This document shows positions 22,602 to 34,396 of a DNA stretch of 64,000 nt, in pieces. Each line of letters opens with the position of its first letter. Within the stretch, counting starts at the first letter, position 1. The stretch lies in the NCBI GenBank assembly GCA_963663385.2, contig CAXXXD010000002.1, forward strand, positions 1,472,001 to 1,536,000, written 5' to 3'. The position numbers and the translations under genes are program-made. Source of the DNA: Oceanispirochaeta sp. GTDB lineage: Bacteria; Spirochaetota; Spirochaetia; DSM-2461. The notes under the pieces were generated by a model. The model did no database searches, was not told the origin of the DNA, and worked only from the letters and a program-made list of their open reading frames with translations.

Positions 22602-24143
<1,542 letters not shown>

Positions 24144-24340
24144 AGCGTGAAAGGTATAAGTCTTGAGGTTTGTACGCCTTGAGCAGTGAGTCACTATTTA
24201 TAGTGCCTATCAGTAGTTACGTTCCTCGGTCTTTGACCTGTGGTACGTAACTTGCTTGATTCTCGTCAACTACTTCTAATTTCCCGTCAGATAATTCCTT
24301 AAAGGGCTTTAGGCGATTTGAGTTTAAGGCCAAACAATTA

Positions 24341-24414
<74 letters not shown>

Positions 24415-24548
24415 TAAAATTAAGTTTGTATCTTGAACAGGATCAAACTTTTTTTACGCCGAATTGCTTGCAGTGAGGCGGGAGATGCGGGAGGCTTTAC
24501 TCTTGCGGATCTTTGAAAAGGTAATAGCGAAGGGATAAATAATAATAT

Positions 24549-27473
<2,925 letters not shown>

Positions 27474-27583
27474 TATTATTATTTATCTCTTCAGTTTTAT
27501 ATAAATTGCAATCGCTTTGGAAGCTAGGAATACTTCTGGAGAGTGAATGCTTCTTGTCAGGGTAAGACTTGATAAGATTATTA

Positions 27584-27692
<109 letters not shown>

Positions 27693-27697
27693 TATTT

Positions 27698-27730
27698 GCC
27701 CCTTGTCTTAGGATGAGGGGCTTTTTCTTT
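27698..27730 (+). terminator. rrn terminator
   Basis: GCCCCTTGTC-ttag-GATGAGGGGC followed by a T-rich tail. Confidence 0.85.
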
Positions 27731-27762: not shown

Positions 27763-29394
27763 TTATAACTCTGAAAAGCAGTCCCCCTGACAGAATCCTT
27801 CCTCATGAAGGGGGCAGTTCCTGCAGATATCAAATACCGGTCTCTGAATAAGGTTATTTAGCGTAGAGTAATAGTTTCCCGGTAAATTGTCCGCCCCTGA
27901 ATATTCCTTGAATCGGTATGTATCTTTTGTTAATGCTTCGCAGGGACTGTAAGTCCCATCGGGATTAAGATTAAAATGAGAAGTAAAATCGTTCCTGTCC
28001 AGATTGCAGATATTGTTTAGATGAGTGTTCCGGAGCAGGTACTTTGATGATTCATTGTCAAAGAGGCAAAGCGGTATAGGGTTTGATATGATGATTTTAT
28101 GTCTTCTGAATTCATATCTGCTTTTTAAATGTTTAACAATAGAGAGAAGATAATCCGCATAGGTTTTAATGGTTTGTTCCGACTTAACTTTATTACAGCG
28201 GGATAATGAGGCTGACAGGCTGATAACCGGATATTGAACTATATCAATATACTTGTTAAGGAAATCCCAGCTCTCATTTTCAGTAAAAGAAACATCATAT
28301 CGCAGAACAATCTGTTTAGAGCAGGTTGTTGCTTTCAGGATATTCTGTGTTATCTGGCGGATCTGCTGTTCTGATTTCAGATTTCTATCTTCAAATAGCT
28401 GAATCACAATTTTTTTCAGATCTTCGAATCTGATAATCTGTGACCAGATATTTTCATGAAATTGCGCCGTTGATGTTATGGTTGTCTGTAGATTGAATCG
28501 TGCTGTTTCAGACAGATAATTCAGGCAGTGGGGTAAAAGGTTTTCCAGACCAGACAGGTTCAGGGTTTTCTTTTCTTTTTCTGATGCGGTAATATTTAAA
28601 ATATCTTCAAACTTTTCCCAATTTATCTGCAGATCCGGAGCTGACGTGTCTTTTTTCCGGTTGGTGCAGTGAAAGCAGCTCATCGGGCCTGAATCCCGTA
28701 AATTAATGGAAACCTGGGTTGAAACCGATTCAAAGATCTTCTCCCGTTCTGCCCTGAATGTTTCATATAGTTTGAATTTCCCTTCTTTGAAAACTATTGT
28801 GCTGTCCAGATTTTCAATTCCCGGAAAATATGCCAGAGACAGGTAATGCTGCAAAAAAAGTTCATCCGGAATGCTGGAGAGAAGGTTTGAAAGATTTCTG
28901 AGTCTAAGTTCTGACAAGAGATGCAGAAAGAGGCTGTTATTAAAATGCCGTATATCAGGGTGAAAATCCTTTTTTTCAACCAACTTCCTTTTCCTGAATG
29001 AGAAGGCGGGATCCATCATAAGGAGATCAAATGCTTTATCTCTGATTGATGGATCATGGTAGAAGAGGAGAGGCAGTATATTTTCGGTTTGATTAAAATC
29101 AAAGTTGTTTTTCTGAAGATCCAGTAAACCTTTGAGGATAAAATCATTTGAAGACTGATTACCTCTGCTTAATTCAGGATTGACTTTATGGCCGGACTCT
29201 CCTGCAGTTGACTCATTCTCCACTTCCTGTTCCATTTGATTAATATTGAATTCTTTACCGATGGATCTGATCTGATACCATATTTTTTTTATTTTACCCA
29301 TATAAAAACCCAGCTTTCTTAAATGGGCAACAGAGTTTTTAGGGTCCAGAAGAAGAATTATAAAAAGAATCAGTATAATCTCAATTAATACCAT
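27763..29394 (-). CDS. TatB-like membrane anchor fused to a HEAT-like segment and a degenerate radical SAM/SPASM domain
   Basis: N-term EIILILFIILLLDPKNSVAHLRKLGFYMGKIKKIW (TM, Pro hinge, amphipathic helix); GPMSCFHC in place of CxxxCxxC; C-term PIPLC...NPDGTYSPC...CRNC-x7-CQGDC. Confidence 0.65.
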   Translation of the reverse strand: MVLIEIILILFIILLLDPKNSVAHLRKLGFYMGKIKKIWYQIRSIGKEFNINQMEQEVENESTAGESGHKVNPELSRGNQSSNDFILKGLLDLQKNNFDFNQTENILPLLFYHDPSIRDKAFDLLMMDPAFSFRKRKLVEKKDFHPDIRHFNNSLFLHLLSELRLRNLSNLLSSIPDELFLQHYLSLAYFPGIENLDSTIVFKEGKFKLYETFRAEREKIFESVSTQVSINLRDSGPMSCFHCTNRKKDTSAPDLQINWEKFEDILNITASEKEKKTLNLSGLENLLPHCLNYLSETARFNLQTTITSTAQFHENIWSQIIRFEDLKKIVIQLFEDRNLKSEQQIRQITQNILKATTCSKQIVLRYDVSFTENESWDFLNKYIDIVQYPVISLSASLSRCNKVKSEQTIKTYADYLLSIVKHLKSRYEFRRHKIIISNPIPLCLFDNESSKYLLRNTHLNNICNLDRNDFTSHFNLNPDGTYSPCEALTKDTYRFKEYSGADNLPGNYYSTLNNLIQRPVFDICRNCPLHEEGFCQGDCFSEL

Positions 29395-29395
29395 A

Positions 29396-30091
29396 TCAGC
29401 CCCATTTCAGGAGTTTTGCAGCAGCAAGACAGAGGAGATACAGGATGAACAGGGGGATCGCTACAATAAACTGGGATAGTAGGTCCTGAGTCATGACAGC
29501 CGAAATCAACAGGGCTACGGGAATAAAATAGGGAATGAATTTAATAAGTCTGGCTCTTTTCAGAATTCGGAATCTGAGCAGTATCAGGGTAATTACCGGA
29601 AACTGGAGCGCTACACAGAAGGCCAGGGTGAATTTGAAATAGAAGCTGATGAATTCATTATAGGAAAAAATCTTGGTCAGACTATCCGGAATAAATGCTT
29701 TAGATTCCAGAAAATAGATTGTTATGGGGAGAAAAATTCTTACAGCGTAAATGGCTGTACAGTAGAGAATTAGACTTAACAGAAAAAGAGTTGAAAAAGT
29801 TGTTTTCTCTTTTTTTTCCAGAGCCGGGAGGATAAAAAGAAGAATATTAAACAGGAAAACAGGAAGAGACAATAGCAGTCCTATATACAGTGAAACCTGG
29901 ATCCTGATAGTGAAGCCTTCATAGACTTTCATTACATGAAAATCTATTTGAAAGGTGCTGTTCAGATATCCTATAAAACGAGGGAAAAGAATGTAGGCGC
30001 TTATTGAAAAAATTATGAAAAAAACTAACGCAATTATCAGTTTCGTCCGTAACTCAATGAGGTGTTGTGTAAATGTGAGGTTTTTTTCCAT
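29396..30091 (-). CDS. tatC: Twin-arginine translocase subunit TatC
   Basis: TFTQHLIELRTKL, YEGF, FILPALEKKEK, QFPV; about six hydrophobic segments. Confidence 0.9.
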   Translation of the reverse strand: MEKNLTFTQHLIELRTKLIIALVFFIIFSISAYILFPRFIGYLNSTFQIDFHVMKVYEGFTIRIQVSLYIGLLLSLPVFLFNILLFILPALEKKEKTTFSTLFLLSLILYCTAIYAVRIFLPITIYFLESKAFIPDSLTKIFSYNEFISFYFKFTLAFCVALQFPVITLILLRFRILKRARLIKFIPYFIPVALLISAVMTQDLLSQFIVAIPLFILYLLCLAAAKLLKWG

Positions 30092-30298
30092 TTAATGGTT
30101 ATTGGAATCGGAATCGGATGGGTCATCATCCGGTTTTGAAGATTTCTCTTCACTCTCTTCTTTCATTCCGCTTTTAAGACCTTTCTTGAATTCTACCAGC
30201 CCTTCACCGATTGAGCGGCCCAGTTTCGGCAGCTTGGATGAACCGAAAATGAGTAATATGGCACCGCCAACTACAAGTATTTCTACAAGACTGATCAT
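30092..30298 (-). CDS. tatA: Twin-arginine translocase subunit TatA
   Basis: EILVV...LLIFGSSKLPKLGRSIGEGLVEFKKG; RBS GAGG. Confidence 0.93.
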   Translation of the reverse strand: MISLVEILVVGGAILLIFGSSKLPKLGRSIGEGLVEFKKGLKSGMKEESEEKSSKPDDDPSDSDSNNH

Positions 30299-30331
30299 GA
30301 GATACCTCTTTTATTAAAGCAAAGTTATTAC

Positions 30332-30595
30332 CTATTTAGTCTGTCCGTAATAGTAGTAATAATAGTAATAATAATTATAGTAGTCGGAATAGTAGTAGTA
30401 ATTGTAATAATTAGAGTAGTAATAGTAGTAATTGTAATAGTTAGAGTAATTGTAATAATCAGAGTAAGTAAAAAGATCACAGCTGCTGACGACTACTGCT
30501 GTTCCGATACCAAGACCGATTTTTCCAATTCTTTCCAGAGCCTGTCTACGGGAGATAGTCGGTTTTTCTTTGCTTTCACCAGTATCAGTTCCCAT
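30332..30595 (-). CDS. 87-aa Tyr-rich precursor with Tat signal and lipobox (putative rSAM substrate)
   Basis: GGAG RBS before ATG 30595; SRRQAL; hydrophobic stretch IGLGIGTAVVV; VSS-C39; core YSDYYNYSNYYNYYYYYSNYYNYYYYSDYYNYYYYYYYYY then GQTK. Confidence 0.85.
   Translation of the reverse strand: MGTDTGESKEKPTISRRQALERIGKIGLGIGTAVVVSSCDLFTYSDYYNYSNYYNYYYYYSNYYNYYYYSDYYNYYYYYYYYYGQTK
30347..30466 (-). repeat. Coding low-complexity repeat: four YS[D/N]YYN units plus poly-Tyr runs
   Basis: 28 of 40 codons are Tyr with TAT and TAC interleaved; the only other residues are Ser, Asn and Asp. Confidence 0.9.
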
Positions 30596-30618
30596 TTTCT
30601 TCTCCAAAAAATGTTCTC

Positions 30619-30634
30619 TTATACTTAAGTATAA
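30619..30634. promoter_or_regulatory. Perfect 16-bp palindrome upstream of the precursor gene
   Basis: TTATACTTAAGTATAA is its own reverse complement. Confidence 0.45.
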
Positions 30635-30653
30635 ATTCAATAATATCATATAT

Positions 30654-31760
30654 CTACTCATTCGGAAACATTTCTATTCGATTCCCGGTTAAAGGCTCGA
30701 TATACTGTGTCATCAGTCTTTGCACTATTTCACAGGCTTCTCCCCGTTTCATAATATCCCCCTTCAAAGCCAGTGTATCGATAGGGCATCCTCCATGACA
30801 CATCCCCCAGAAACGGCAGTATTTGCAGTCAGTCTGTTTCAGAACAATTTGCCGTTTATTTATGATATCTCTTTTACTGTGTTCCAAGGCCGCTCTGATA
30901 CCGGTATTCCGGATATTTCCATAATCTGCCAGGTTTTCATCTCCTGCTTTTCCGCATTGGGAAAGCTTTCCCGTTGGACCTATGTAGAGCCAGTGGTTGG
31001 CGCAATTACCGGCATAATCACATAGAAGTCCACCTTTGCCATTTATAAACCTGATAAACATATCAATTGGACGAAGACCTTCATACTTTTCCGGATTTGC
31101 CAGGTAGATCGGCACCAGCTTTCCAAGGAAGTCGGCATACTCTTCGGGCGTAATATTTATATTGAAGGGATCATCCCCGTAAATGTAAATTTTATTAAAG
31201 GCTGGAGTTGTCTTAGTGTTTATATTTTTCAGGTGGTTAAGTATTCCTACCGGATTTTCAAGGGATCTTCTATGAACGACATATATAACCCCCCAGCTCA
31301 GGTTGTTCCGTTCAGCCAGTTCCGTTCCCTTGAAAAAAAGCTCCTTATAGATCTTTGAATCCCTTTTTTCTCCTATTCCCCGAATACCTTCTATGGGGTC
31401 GTAACTTGAACCTATCATATCAATCTTCAACTCTTTAAATACATCAACTAATTCCTGTGTCAAGCAAGTCATATTTGATTGGATCAGATGCCGGATTCTG
31501 TTTTCAGTCTCTCTGCAATAGGTTCTCTGGTATTCCAGTGCCTTTCTGAAATAGTCAGGACCAAGAAGGCAGGGTTCTCCTCCATGCCAGGTCAGCTGTA
31601 TGGATTCATCCGGGAATTCCTTTAAATAGTCATTCATACGTTTAAACACTGTTTCCAGTATTTCGAAAGTCATTATTTTTTCCTGATGCTTTTTTATAAC
31701 ACCGCAGTAAAGACAGTTGGAATTGCAGAGTTCAATGGGTTTGAAAATTATAACTGCCAT
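30654..31760 (-). CDS. Radical SAM/SPASM enzyme, anSME-like (putative peptide maturase)
   Basis: KPIELCNSNCLYC; TWHGGEP; SPASM Cx5C-x15-C...GNI...CKYC-x5-CHGGCP...C. Confidence 0.9.
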   Translation of the reverse strand: MAVIIFKPIELCNSNCLYCGVIKKHQEKIMTFEILETVFKRMNDYLKEFPDESIQLTWHGGEPCLLGPDYFRKALEYQRTYCRETENRIRHLIQSNMTCLTQELVDVFKELKIDMIGSSYDPIEGIRGIGEKRDSKIYKELFFKGTELAERNNLSWGVIYVVHRRSLENPVGILNHLKNINTKTTPAFNKIYIYGDDPFNINITPEEYADFLGKLVPIYLANPEKYEGLRPIDMFIRFINGKGGLLCDYAGNCANHWLYIGPTGKLSQCGKAGDENLADYGNIRNTGIRAALEHSKRDIINKRQIVLKQTDCKYCRFWGMCHGGCPIDTLALKGDIMKRGEACEIVQRLMTQYIEPLTGNRIEMFPNE

Positions 31761-32629
31761 TTTTCGCCTTCCCGGCGGGGCTCCCGCTTCGTTGCTGAAT
31801 CTATATATTTGAGAATGCTGTCAAACAGGATTTTATAGGAATCATCTTTTTCACACTGGTTCAGGTAAGCCATCCGGCAGCTTCTCCAGGCCGAGCAGAA
31901 AGAACACTTTTCATTATCTATAAATACTCTGGTGCGAATTTCCCGGATTTTTCTGTTTTCACAATCATTGATAATCTCTTTCAGCTGTTCCAATCCGGAA
32001 CCCAGGAAATTTCCCTTTACCAGTTCATCCCTGCTTTCTGCTATATTCATACTCCTGTCTATATAGACAAATTGGGCCGGATCATTGAATACGGGGGCAG
32101 TTATCGAGAACGTTTCATTTTCATAATCCTTTGAGCAGAGAAAACGGAACGGCTCTATGTGGCCTTTTGGTACATTCGTGTAAGCAAAGTAGTGAAAAAG
32201 GTCGTCCAGGCTGTCCCAGTCGATATTATCACCACAACTTTTAAGATAGAAGCCGCAATCAATGTGCAGAGATGACAGAATCCTTAGATCTCGGATATTT
32301 TCCGCTTTATCTGCCGGGAAAAATACCTGCATATTAAAATTCCTCAACCTGCCTGTTTGTATAAGAATCATTGTCAGATCTCCTGTTTCCGGTACAAAGA
32401 GGGCAAGGGGAATCCCTTTGTAGGTATCTTTGAGTTCAAGTTCAGATAGACTTATATGAGAAGTTACTTTTATACAGAACAGACGGAAAAACTCTTTTGA
32501 AAGCTTGTCGATTTCTGTAACATCTTCCAGATTTTCGGTTTCTATAATACTTTCAATATCTTTCAGCTGACTTATCAAGTCCCTGTTGAAGGGTGCTACT
32601 ACGATTTTTTTTCTGTTTTTCTCTTTCAT
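31748..32629 (-). CDS. Degenerate SPASM-like protein with no CxxxCxxC motif
   Basis: C-term VYIDRSMNI...GNFLG...CSFCSAWRSC resembles the neighbour's LYIGPTGKL...YGNI...CKYCRFWGMC. Confidence 0.55.
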   Translation of the reverse strand: MKEKNRKKIVVAPFNRDLISQLKDIESIIETENLEDVTEIDKLSKEFFRLFCIKVTSHISLSELELKDTYKGIPLALFVPETGDLTMILIQTGRLRNFNMQVFFPADKAENIRDLRILSSLHIDCGFYLKSCGDNIDWDSLDDLFHYFAYTNVPKGHIEPFRFLCSKDYENETFSITAPVFNDPAQFVYIDRSMNIAESRDELVKGNFLGSGLEQLKEIINDCENRKIREIRTRVFIDNEKCSFCSAWRSCRMAYLNQCEKDDSYKILFDSILKYIDSATKREPRREGEKWQL

Positions 32630-33621
32630 ATCAGATCCTCCGCAGGAAGGTACTCTTCAATGAAATTTGCCAGGCATCCTCCGGCACATTTTTCGTTTTT
32701 CATATAAATGCAGGATTCACACTCATCGTATATTCCCGCTTTATTCCTGCGGACGGCTTTGTGCATATCGTTGTAGTACTTGTATATATCTTCCACCGAA
32801 TCAAATTCAAAAATACTCCTTCTTTTGAATCTTGACAGTGGAAAGCAGGACCAGACCGTCATATCAGGGCCTATATCCAGAGCCGAGCTGCATACAAATT
32901 TTACAGTAGACGGTCCCTGTCCTTTTTCCAGTTTAAAAAACTGACCGATCTGCTCGTCTGTAAAACTGCATAAGGGAAAGCCGCAGTCAAATCCGGCGCT
33001 TACATTGTGTTTTATAAAGAGAGGCAGATAGGATGACAGTTTCGCAGCCATTTCCTTGAAGTGATCAGGTTTGATACACAGATTCTTTTCCCCTGGTATG
33101 GGGTGGGCCAGGCCTATCCGTATATGTCTGTTTATACCGTATCGTTCAATGTGTTCGAAAAGGTATTCCATGGTGGCTTCCAGGGTGAAAAGATTGAAGC
33201 TGAGGGTGCAGTATTTTCCCAGTACCCGCAGAAAAGCATCAATCCTCTCCAGTTCCTTATCCGTGGACATGGACGGGTGGTTCAGGTTTACTACAAAGCG
33301 GACCCGATGTTCCGGAAACTGTTCCAGGCTGGCAACCAGATGATCCAGCTTCTTTTGAGACATAATTCCGCAGGTGAAAACGGTAACCCCGAAATTCCTG
33401 TTTATCAGATAGAGAATAAACTCGGTAAAATATTTATGAACGGAAGGTTCTCCTCCCAGAAGGGACAACTGGTTGTTCATATGGGACCGTTCGAAAAGAT
33501 CTACAATGTAGATGAAATCTTCCCAGCTTATAAACTTGTGATCTGAGCTGTCCATATATTTTTTAGCAAAGCAGTAGGGGCAGGATCTGACACACTCTTC
33601 GGTAAGCAATATATTTGGCAT
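32626..33621 (-). CDS. Radical SAM protein with SPASM/twitch-type C-terminus
   Basis: LTEECVRSCPYC; LLGGEP; DCGFPLC; VCSSALDIGPDMTVWSC; CESC-x7-CAGGC. Confidence 0.9.
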   Translation of the reverse strand: MPNILLTEECVRSCPYCFAKKYMDSSDHKFISWEDFIYIVDLFERSHMNNQLSLLGGEPSVHKYFTEFILYLINRNFGVTVFTCGIMSQKKLDHLVASLEQFPEHRVRFVVNLNHPSMSTDKELERIDAFLRVLGKYCTLSFNLFTLEATMEYLFEHIERYGINRHIRIGLAHPIPGEKNLCIKPDHFKEMAAKLSSYLPLFIKHNVSAGFDCGFPLCSFTDEQIGQFFKLEKGQGPSTVKFVCSSALDIGPDMTVWSCFPLSRFKRRSIFEFDSVEDIYKYYNDMHKAVRRNKAGIYDECESCIYMKNEKCAGGCLANFIEEYLPAEDLI

Positions 33622-33652
33622 AAACTTCTTCCCTGCAGATAGTTTAGATAAA

Positions 33653-33682
33653 ATTCTACTACCAACATGCTGTGGTAGTCAA
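33653..33682 (-). promoter_or_regulatory. Putative sigma70 promoter of the rSAM/Tat operon with an overlapping dyad
   Basis: Minus strand TTGACT-N18-TAGAAT containing ACTACCA-N8-TGGTAGT. Confidence 0.55.
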
Positions 33683-33748
33683 ATTAATACAAAAATGTTT
33701 ATTATTCATCTCTTGTAAATTATGTGTCAGTCTGTAAAATCTATAGTA

Positions 33749-34396
33749 ATGAAATCCCCTCCTTCGAAAATAGTCCTTTTAACTCCTCTTATCCCTGAAT
33801 TTCACGCAGCCAGGGAAGCTTTTGGAGCCAGGGAATTGGAAAACGGGAGTTACCCGGGAGTCCGGATGGCTGAATGGCGCAGAAAAGGACTGATCCTTAC
33901 GATTGTGCAATGCGGATTGGGAGATAAGGGCGTAAAGAGCGTTCTGCCACTGTTATCGGAACTTCATCCTGATCTTCTGATCGATTCCGGCAGCTGCGGA
34001 GGCCTGAATCCTGCTTTCCCTCCGGGCTCCCTTGTAATGGCCGGAGAGGTTGTTTCCTCTGAAAGCCGTACGGTCCTGTCCATGGATTTTTCCGGTTTTG
34101 AGGGTTCCTTTTCTGATTCCGGTTATTTAAAAACCAGGATGCTGGAAGTTCCTGATCCGGTTCTGGATCAGAAAAGCAGGGATGAATTTCAAAGCAGTAC
34201 CGGAGCCGGTGTATGCTCCATGGAAACCTATGCCGTTGCCGAATGGGCGAGGGATAACGCCGTTAAGTGTTTCAGTCTCAGGGTTGTCACCGACCGGGCT
34301 GATGAGAATACCGGGAAGGATTTCAGGAGGAACCTGCGTAATAATACGCTGCTCCTTTATCGTGCGATAAAACAAATACTGAGTTCTCTCCGGTAA
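33749..34396 (+). CDS. Nucleoside phosphorylase / MTA-SAH nucleosidase superfamily protein
   Basis: CGLG, DSGSCGGL, CSMETYAVA, LRVVTDRAD; start may instead be 33722. Confidence 0.75.
   Translation: MKSPPSKIVLLTPLIPEFHAAREAFGARELENGSYPGVRMAEWRRKGLILTIVQCGLGDKGVKSVLPLLSELHPDLLIDSGSCGGLNPAFPPGSLVMAGEVVSSESRTVLSMDFSGFEGSFSDSGYLKTRMLEVPDPVLDQKSRDEFQSSTGAGVCSMETYAVAEWARDNAVKCFSLRVVTDRADENTGKDFRRNLRNNTLLLYRAIKQILSSLR

Follow-up and report, generated by a model that had tools for sequence, protein, structure and literature searches.

The DNA analyzed here, a 64-kb window from the genome of an Oceanispirochaeta species, carries on its minus strand a tightly packed operon of seven genes, the last of which (27763..29394, stop codon included) encodes a 543-aa fusion of a TatB-like N-terminus, a helical region and a degenerate radical S-adenosylmethionine (rSAM)/SPASM domain. 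The operon order is rSAM-A, a 293-aa protein, an rSAM/SPASM maturase, a Tyr-rich precursor, the twin-arginine translocation (Tat) genes tatA and tatC, and the 543-aa gene. The last gene has an ATG start in the list of open reading frames (ORFs), its 543-codon frame is open and free of frameshifts, and a single T separates the TGA stop of tatC from this ATG, so both the gene and its start 1 nt after tatC are as an initial annotation of the sequence had described them. It is nearly certain that the protein consists of four parts: a TatB-like module, a linker, a helical domain and an rSAM/SPASM domain. The source genome of the window is labelled G000 below; other G and L labels refer to related genomes and loci.

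An AlphaFold2 (AF2) model of the whole protein (76-row alignment; mean predicted local distance difference test score (pLDDT) 87.6, predicted template modelling score (pTM) 0.84) places the strands and helices of a partial barrel after the helical domain, followed by a C-terminal Cys-rich, SPASM-like part. In VIA-align, residues ~226–543 match the rSAM/SPASM maturases ChlB (Z 19.2, root-mean-square deviation 3.6, 285 aligned residues), anSME (18.9) and SuiB (18.9), in alignments that extend to residue 543, and Foldseek matched SuiB at E 3e-7, which bears out the rSAM/SPASM assignment initially made for residues 220–543. The same fold over residues 226–543 is found at Z 17–19 across ChlB (9gm3), anSME (4k36), SuiB (5v1q), CteB (5wgg) and PqqE (6c8v), and the window protein further resembles these maturases in its SPASM-type Cys set and in belonging to an operon with a short precursor and other rSAM enzymes. 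Unlike them, it lacks both the first cysteine (Cys1) of the CxxxCxxC motif and GGEP, and its accessory N-domain is helical, whereas that of SuiB and CteB is a winged-helix RRE.

The degenerate radical SAM core spans residues 226–436 (28087..28719, minus strand) and the SPASM-type C-terminal domain residues 437–543 (27766..28086, minus strand). In the core, CxxxCxxC has become GxxxCxxC (G236-x3-C240-x2-C243), with a GGC codon in place of Cys1, the loss of which had been noticed from the start, and the counterpart of GGEP is G282-L283-E284 followed by a gap. Conservation among 73 intact relatives reaches 85% or more in 29 alignment columns; the window protein retains 22 of these and lacks seven (C236G, Y242H, G283L, the Pro of GGEP, N309T, H332Q and K438N). 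These losses all lie in or beside the SAM core, K438N just past the core segment, and the positions of Cys1 (C236), G283 and K438 are 100% conserved in the intact relatives, that of the GGEP Pro 99%. The seven conserved SPASM cysteines are kept (C443, C463, C485, C524, C527, C535 and C539), and the TIGR04085 SPASM model matches residues 472–540 at E 7.2e-4, with 19.9 bits against a cut-off of 27. Pfam Radical_SAM (PF04055) gives no match to the window protein at E≤0.1; its cut-off is passed by 10 of 12 scanned relatives, and of two other degenerate proteins P0022 reaches 26.1 bits versus 29.5 and P0030 has no match.

Divergence is distributed unevenly along the protein. When the window protein is compared with nine intact fused members, and the result set against the mean among those nine, identities are 0.33 versus 0.36 for the TatB part, 0.32 versus 0.32 for the helical domain, 0.17 versus 0.375 for residues 226–345, 0.25 versus 0.34 for residues 346–435 and 0.37 versus 0.48 for the SPASM part. 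This pattern reads as the signature of an enzyme site freed from selection while the remainder is maintained, although it falls short of proving inactivity. Given the change of Cys1 to Gly, of GGEP to GLE followed by a gap, and the decay of further core residues, the window protein has probably lost SAM cleavage. The alternative is that it is still an active rSAM enzyme, with C240, C243 and a non-canonical third ligand holding its cluster, and carries out the final modification that its intact relatives perform. Its frame is intact, its rSAM fold is predicted at high confidence, C240, C243, G282 and E284 are retained, and non-canonical cluster motifs do occur in a few radical SAM families. Activity nevertheless seems very improbable in view of the replacement of three residues invariant in the intact relatives, the accompanying loss of Y242, the GGEP Pro, N309 and H332, the low identity of the SAM-binding half (17% versus 37.5%), the missing Pfam match and the lack of any further Cys within ~45 residues of the loop (cysteines occur at 240, 243, 290 and from 358 onward).

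The probable loss of SAM cleavage is not typical of the family. A word-index homologue search returned the 543-aa protein only, whereas an exhaustive HMMER search of 1.84 billion representatives revealed 147 proteins at E≤1e-3, of which 17 reached E≤1e-30; full-length homologues of the window protein share 28–35% identity. The majority of the 147 are 450–510 aa long and combine a helical N-domain with rSAM/SPASM but have no TatB module. Twelve begin with a TatB-like N-terminus, and P0006, which by eye was called from an internal start, is a likely thirteenth fused member. CxxxCxxC is kept in 102 of the 105 matches longer than 400 aa, including 10 of the 13 TatB-fused proteins; the three that have lost it (P0022, P0030 from G037, and the window protein itself) are all TatB-fused. 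A quick maximum-likelihood tree pairs the window protein with the intact P0002 (Shimodaira–Hasegawa-like approximate likelihood ratio test (SH-aLRT) 97), with a terminal branch of 1.57 for the former versus 0.47 for the latter, and places the three degenerate proteins in three separate positions, each on a long branch. The retention of CxxxCxxC in nearly all long matches indicates that the ancestral state was a translocon-tethered, apparently active enzyme of which the window copy is a derived degenerate form. The initial description of the protein as catalytically dead is thus apt for the window copy, which lacks residues invariant in 73 relatives, but not for the family.

A second part of that description, that the protein is a paralogue of the operon's own rSAM-A (331 aa; 32626..33621, minus strand; CxxxCxxC and GGEP intact; Pfam Radical_SAM E 9.8e-12), has to be revised. 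The motif pairings first made by eye (SCFHC/SCPYC, INWEKF/ISWEDF, LSGLEN/LLGGEP, PIPLCLF/GFPLCSF and CRNC..CQGDC/CESC..CAGGC) do all fall within one BLASTP alignment of window protein residues 239–541 with rSAM-A residues 13–318 (19% identity, E 2e-5 as a single comparison), and no significant BLASTP match links the 543-aa protein to the 293-aa protein (E 2.7), the 368-aa maturase (1.5) or TatA (0.37). However, the protein belongs to a separate, wider family, the members of which adjoin an rSAM-A-type gene in every locus with enough flank. Non-fused homologues lie beside one or two such genes in Myxococcales, Desulfobacterales, four Bacteroidales loci and one further bacterium, and no Tat genes were found within 9 kb of those loci. 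In a phmmer search the intact homologue P0002 hits the window rSAM-A at E 1.2e-9 and gives no match to the 368-aa maturase. Together with the recurrent adjacency, this indicates that rSAM-A and the fused enzyme form an old, constant pair of distant paralogues, and that the TatB fusion is a spirochaete-type variant of it. In the Bacteroidales loci (L036–L039) the non-fused homologue stands with two rSAM-A-type genes and, by eye, with a PqqD-like small protein and an HprK-like protein, while P0050 (870 aa) is an HprK-related kinase domain fused to an rSAM domain; these observations suggest a link to HprK/PqqD/rSAM peptide cassettes.

The N-terminal module of the window protein (residues 1–48; 29251..29394, minus strand) is laid out as a transmembrane (TM) helix at 2–16, a hinge at Pro18 and a basic amphipathic helix at 18–48, and the AF2 model likewise has a helix at 2–16, a break at 17 and a helix at 18–48. 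Across 12 fused homologues (12-row alignment), E5, P18, R26 and G29 (window numbering) do not vary; the N-termini of these homologues follow the pattern M-F-x-x-G-x-G-E-(hydrophobic x13)-P-x-x-I-P-x-x-F-R-K-x-G. The top four matches of a profile of 13 N-termini to Protein Data Bank (PDB) sequences are all TatB chains (9e02_F, 4.9e-7; 9e03_B, 1.1e-6; 2mi2_A, 2.9e-5; 9dzz_B, 9.6e-5), with TatA-type chains scoring lower (TatAd 4.7e-3, TatA 0.5), and the invariant Glu and Pro of the fused family align with those in the solved TatB chains. Among curated models, Pfam TatA_B_E (PF02416) matches seven of the 13 N-termini at E≤0.1, with one member above the cut-off (24.1 versus 21 bits), and TIGR01410 tatB matches five of eight scanned fused members (E 1.5e-7 to 1.5e-4), all under the cut-off; the window protein alone reaches NCBIfam TatB_Rickett at E 2.7e-3, with 17.9 bits versus a cut-off of 75. 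As the window N-terminus by itself stays below threshold, the TatB question is settled only through its relatives. From the invariant residues and the precedence of TatB chains in the profile search, we conclude on sequence grounds that the N-terminus of the fused family is a TatB-type module, of which the window copy is the most divergent representative. The TatA/B pattern initially read from these residues therefore holds at the level of the family, but is weak for the window sequence alone. A complex prediction with TatC (8-row alignment) and the N-terminal 60 residues (13-row alignment) yielded no verdict in either direction (score 0.00 against a mark of 0.32, with no controls run).

It could be argued that this N-terminus is a generic membrane anchor, TatB-like by descent but located outside the Tat receptor, since the window copy falls under every curated TatA/B cut-off and its interaction with TatC is putative. 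This is a highly improbable explanation: the TatB-specific Glu, the hinge Pro and the Arg and Gly of the amphipathic helix are invariant and align with TatB in solved TatBC entries, the fused gene lies only 1 nt from tatC in the window, and in G000, G018, G037 and G039, all operon-bearing, no TatB-type gene was found apart from the fusion, whereas the congener G002 has a stand-alone 109-aa TatB-like gene.

Between the TatB-like module and the rSAM core, residues 49–72 form a poorly conserved linker of low model confidence (29179..29250, minus strand; pLDDT <50 for residues 50–70), and identity is about 0.19 in residues 46–105. The linker leads into a conserved all-helical domain (residues 73–225; 28720..29178, minus strand) with the motifs LPLLF, DPxFxF and PGIENLD and the invariant residues P129, F131, F133, R164, G192 and L196. 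Modelled alone, this domain reaches a pLDDT of 89.6, with residues 73–223 predicted to be all-helical. The HEAT-like stretch of the initial annotation is weakly supported: fold matches are of the alpha-solenoid/HEAT/ARM type with a best VIA-align Z of 6.9 and Foldseek E≥0.94 (YibA matches at Z 6.5 over 52 residues), and Pfam has no HEAT repeat match for the window protein. Foldseek, in which a TorD/DmsD-like or other known fold was looked for, gave nothing at E≤0.001 for this domain, and residues 73–225 drew no usable match from the protein atlas. Pfam HEAT_2 (PF13646) scores above its cut-off in one of 12 scanned distant non-fused relatives and weakly in two more. Judging from the models, the domain is possibly HEAT-like at best.

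Five of 41 related genomes match the 543-aa protein (G000, G018, G022, G037 and G039), at full length in G018 and G039; the 293-aa gene occurs in four of the 41, all operon-bearing, and is absent from G022, the locus of which ends at a contig edge. A scan at one genome per species yielded 16 loci, nine of them from uncultured Spirochaetales/Spirochaetaceae; three of these nine duplicate loci already counted, and each genome is counted once here. A fused N-terminus is visible in nine genomes (G000, G018, G037, G039, L024, L025, L028, L029 and L030), so, together with the TatB-like starts among the HMMER matches, homologues do carry the fusion on which the initial annotation depended. In eight of the nine, tatC lies directly upstream of the fused gene; in L028 the precursor precedes it instead. 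The same seven genes recur, arranged as two divergent units in L029 and L030, while tatA was not found at the G039 locus and at L027 the ORF is confined to the C-terminal 290 aa. The fused protein of G037 (L008, 8050–9735, minus strand) is more degraded than in the window, with only the third Cys of CxxxCxxC left and a truncated SPASM end, and the 293-aa homologue (L008, 12391–13116, minus strand) has an in-frame TAG, and decay may affect the entire cluster in this genome.

These observations bear on the proposal that the 543-aa gene is itself a pseudogene in the making, with a minimal TatA/TatC pair performing export and the fused protein idle. A long terminal branch and lost catalytic residues would be expected of such a gene, and the G037 homologue, in which Cys1 and Cys2 are lost next to an interrupted 293-aa gene, demonstrates that decay of the cluster does occur. 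Yet the 543-codon frame is open, all other genes of the operon are intact, the TatB and helical parts are as conserved as among intact members, and the seven SPASM cysteines and 22 of the 29 conserved positions are kept; random decay would not leave three of four modules untouched. We consider this explanation quite unlikely.

The tatC gene of the operon (231 aa; 29396..30091, minus strand; Pfam TatC E 1.8e-34) and its tatA (68 aa; 30092..30298, minus strand; Pfam TatA_B_E E 6.9e-15) provide the only TatC match and the only TatA_B_E match (E≤1) of the source genome, and G018, G037 and G039 likewise each show a single TatC, which lies in the operon, and a single TatA_B_E match. Eight of ten congeners carry a TatC of a different type, and the 543-aa and 293-aa genes occur in none of the ten. 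The one congener read, G002, has a canonical tatA-tatB-tatC locus (L016) with its 109-aa tatB, beside an fdhD-like gene (by eye); no such locus is present in the source genome. FastTree places the eight operon-linked TatCs together and apart from the congener TatCs (no support values). The Tat-signal model TIGR01409 gives no matches in G000 versus matches in 12 of 14 control genomes, although it also fails on the operon's own precursor, and a crude RR-motif scan returned 55 mostly spurious candidates, of which the operon precursor alone looks Tat-leader-like by eye. The translocase can reasonably be taken to be dedicated to the operon. Operon G+C is 0.38–0.42, versus ~0.45–0.50 in the flanks (region 28001–34000); this low G+C and the patchy distribution across families are consistent with horizontal acquisition.

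Alternatively, the operon could encode the general Tat pathway of the organism, in which case the fused protein would be a housekeeping TatB with an extra domain. The operon does hold the sole Tat set of G000, and the Tat-signal screens are crude, one of them having missed the precursor. This alternative is rather unlikely, however, when set against the different TatC of 8/10 congeners (a canonical locus in G002) and the absence of the 543-aa and 293-aa genes from all ten, the way in which operon TatCs travel with the operon across families, an operon G+C below that of the flanks, and the lack of any other convincing RR leader in either the TIGR01409 search or the motif scan.

The translation of the Tyr-rich precursor (30332..30661, minus strand) contains a Tat-like leader (ISRRQALERIGK), a hydrophobic stretch, a lipobox-like VSSC and a Tyr-rich core; judged by eye from homologue lengths, its true start is probably the internal Met23, downstream of the annotated first ATG. 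The leader was compared with the Tat consensus S/T-R-R-x-F-L-K, and the Cys with the lipobox. Eleven precursor ORFs (10 distinct) share the leader (S/T)R(R/K)(D/E/Q)AL(K/E)R(I/M/L), an h-region, a Cys at the lipobox-like position and a Tyr-rich tail, with a core length that is highly variable among loci; the Myxococcales locus also has a precursor with this leader, and the precursor family has no match in Pfam or NCBIfam. Conservation of the leader, as RR(D/E)ALKRIAK, exceeds the needs of a Tat signal, and the maturases may therefore read the leader too.

By NCBIfam, the 368-aa rSAM/SPASM maturase (30654..31760, minus strand) is of the DarE/DynA/anSME type, matching TIGR04083 (1e-37), DynA (2.8e-35), anSME (5.4e-35) and DarE (8.2e-33), all under their equivalog cut-offs. 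Because it matches maturases of the DarE/DynA type and cyclophane-forming ones, aromatic cross-links would be the obvious guess for the modification of the precursor. The 293-aa protein (31748..32629, minus strand) is conserved in the operon, has no Pfam or NCBIfam match and ends in a Cys-rich motif (CxxC...C...C); its gene always separates rSAM-A from that of the rSAM/SPASM maturase. The protein may serve in substrate recognition or as a degenerate SPASM-like partner.

Around the operon, a complete rRNA operon (16S, one tRNA, 23S and 5S) at 22602–27692 on the plus strand converges on the 3′ end of the 543-aa gene and is ended by a terminator-like hairpin at 27698–27721, ~40 nt from that end. 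Immediately upstream of the operon lies a divergent 224-aa ORF (33722–34396, plus strand) that by eye resembles a methylthioadenosine/S-adenosylhomocysteine (MTA/SAH)-type nucleosidase; if this by-eye identity holds, such an enzyme would suit the removal of radical SAM by-products.

On balance, we lean towards a reading in which the window protein is the TatB-like receptor subunit of the operon TatA/TatC and carries a non-catalytic substrate-binding module. It would be a four-part inner-membrane protein in which a flexible linker joins a TatB-family N-terminus to a conserved helical domain, with the rSAM/SPASM domain at the C-terminal end. In the Tat receptor, made up of TatB and TatC, the twin-arginine leader is bound by TatC, and the part of TatB that follows its membrane helix adjoins the passenger; a maturase fused behind a TatB module would therefore sit at the passenger of the docked precursor. 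In most relatives the protein would be an apparently active peptide maturase, anchored next to TatC by its TatB module and acting on the Tyr-rich precursor, perhaps as the last modification, while the receptor holds the leader. In the source genome the SAM-cluster site has decayed but the TatB module persists, as do the helical domain and all seven SPASM cysteines; the protein would bring a substrate-binding or scaffolding module, possibly with auxiliary iron–sulfur clusters, to the translocon. Once the other three maturation proteins (rSAM-A, the 293-aa protein and the rSAM/SPASM enzyme) have done their work, the helical and SPASM modules could hold the precursor or check it. The order of these events, the lipidation of the product and the dedication of the translocase are inferred. 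A more tentative and less probable proposal is that the TatB-fused rSAM/SPASM module makes the last cross-link or, once inactive, tests whether the peptide is complete, with the modification state gating export. If this is true, the loss of catalysis at three positions of the partly unresolved tree, in fused members only, would mean that selection maintains gating or scaffolding and not catalysis.

Several points weigh against the receptor-subunit reading. Pfam TatA_B_E does not match the window N-terminus alone at E≤0.1, and this N-terminus, the most divergent of the family, has a hinge of the form DP and lacks a Gly-x-Gly ahead of the Glu. As minimal Tat systems of TatA and TatC function without TatB, a TatB-like part does not by itself imply a receptor subunit. 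We infer binding of the window protein to TatC and to the precursor, on the TatC side from gene adjacency, and the proofreading role put forward in the initial annotation is a proposal of the same kind. As TIGR01409 misses the operon precursor, its silence elsewhere in the genome is weak evidence for a dedicated translocase. C240, C243 and Glu284 remain, so some cluster or SAM binding is possible on sequence grounds; the nearest relative is only 35% identical, which precludes a test of purifying selection by the ratio of nonsynonymous to synonymous substitution rates (dN/dS); and the tree is a quick version with deeper forks unresolved.

Compared with known systems, the receptor subunit proposed here resembles TatB (2mi2; chains of 9e02, 9e03 and 9dzz) in its N-terminal TM helix, which has a conserved Glu close to the start, in its Pro hinge and basic amphipathic helix, and in the adjacency of its gene to tatC. 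TatB proteins, however, end in a short, poorly conserved tail where the window protein has ~470 further residues (helical and rSAM/SPASM), and the gene order here is tatA-tatC-tatB*, versus tatA-tatB-tatC in G002. To our knowledge, no rSAM/SPASM maturase is membrane-anchored through a Tat subunit. Precedents for rSAM-fold proteins that lack the motif and occur in peptide-modification cassettes are the NCBIfam pseudo-rSAM families TIGR04150 and TIGR04347. These appear as weak matches for relatives of the window protein (for example 30.5 versus 525 bits), so far below the cut-offs that the window protein is no member; the degenerate state defines the whole family there, whereas here it is derived, in three of 13 fused members. 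Chaperones of the TorD/DmsD type, which bind Tat signal peptides and proofread but are soluble and outside the translocase, have the role proposed here, that of a cytoplasmic helical module holding a Tat substrate until maturation is complete, yet no sequence or fold similarity between them and the window protein was found with Pfam, NCBIfam, Foldseek or VIA-align.

A full-text literature search returned, in the part of the literature it covered, nothing that describes a TatB–rSAM fusion, an rSAM peptide system with a Tat leader, or pseudo-rSAM proteins. The automatic annotation of one relative reads ‘radical SAM enzyme / Sec-independent protein translocase protein’, so the domain pair has already been seen by a pipeline, apparently without discussion. 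The kinds of component are thus known (TatB, rSAM/SPASM and, as an NCBIfam concept, pseudo-rSAM); what is new is the combination of parts, the operon-bound Tat set and the repeated loss of catalysis restricted to the fused form.

The Tat pathway exports folded or cofactor-loaded proteins, and the only quality control known to precede this export is exerted by soluble chaperones. With an enzyme or pseudo-enzyme covalently joined to a TatB module, post-translational modification would be linked physically to the translocon, and the TatB–rSAM fusion hints that peptide maturation and export are physically coupled in this way. The whole Tat set would then travel with a peptide-modification operon, and the intact and degenerate versions of one fusion in related genomes constitute a natural experiment on the change from enzyme to pseudo-enzyme.

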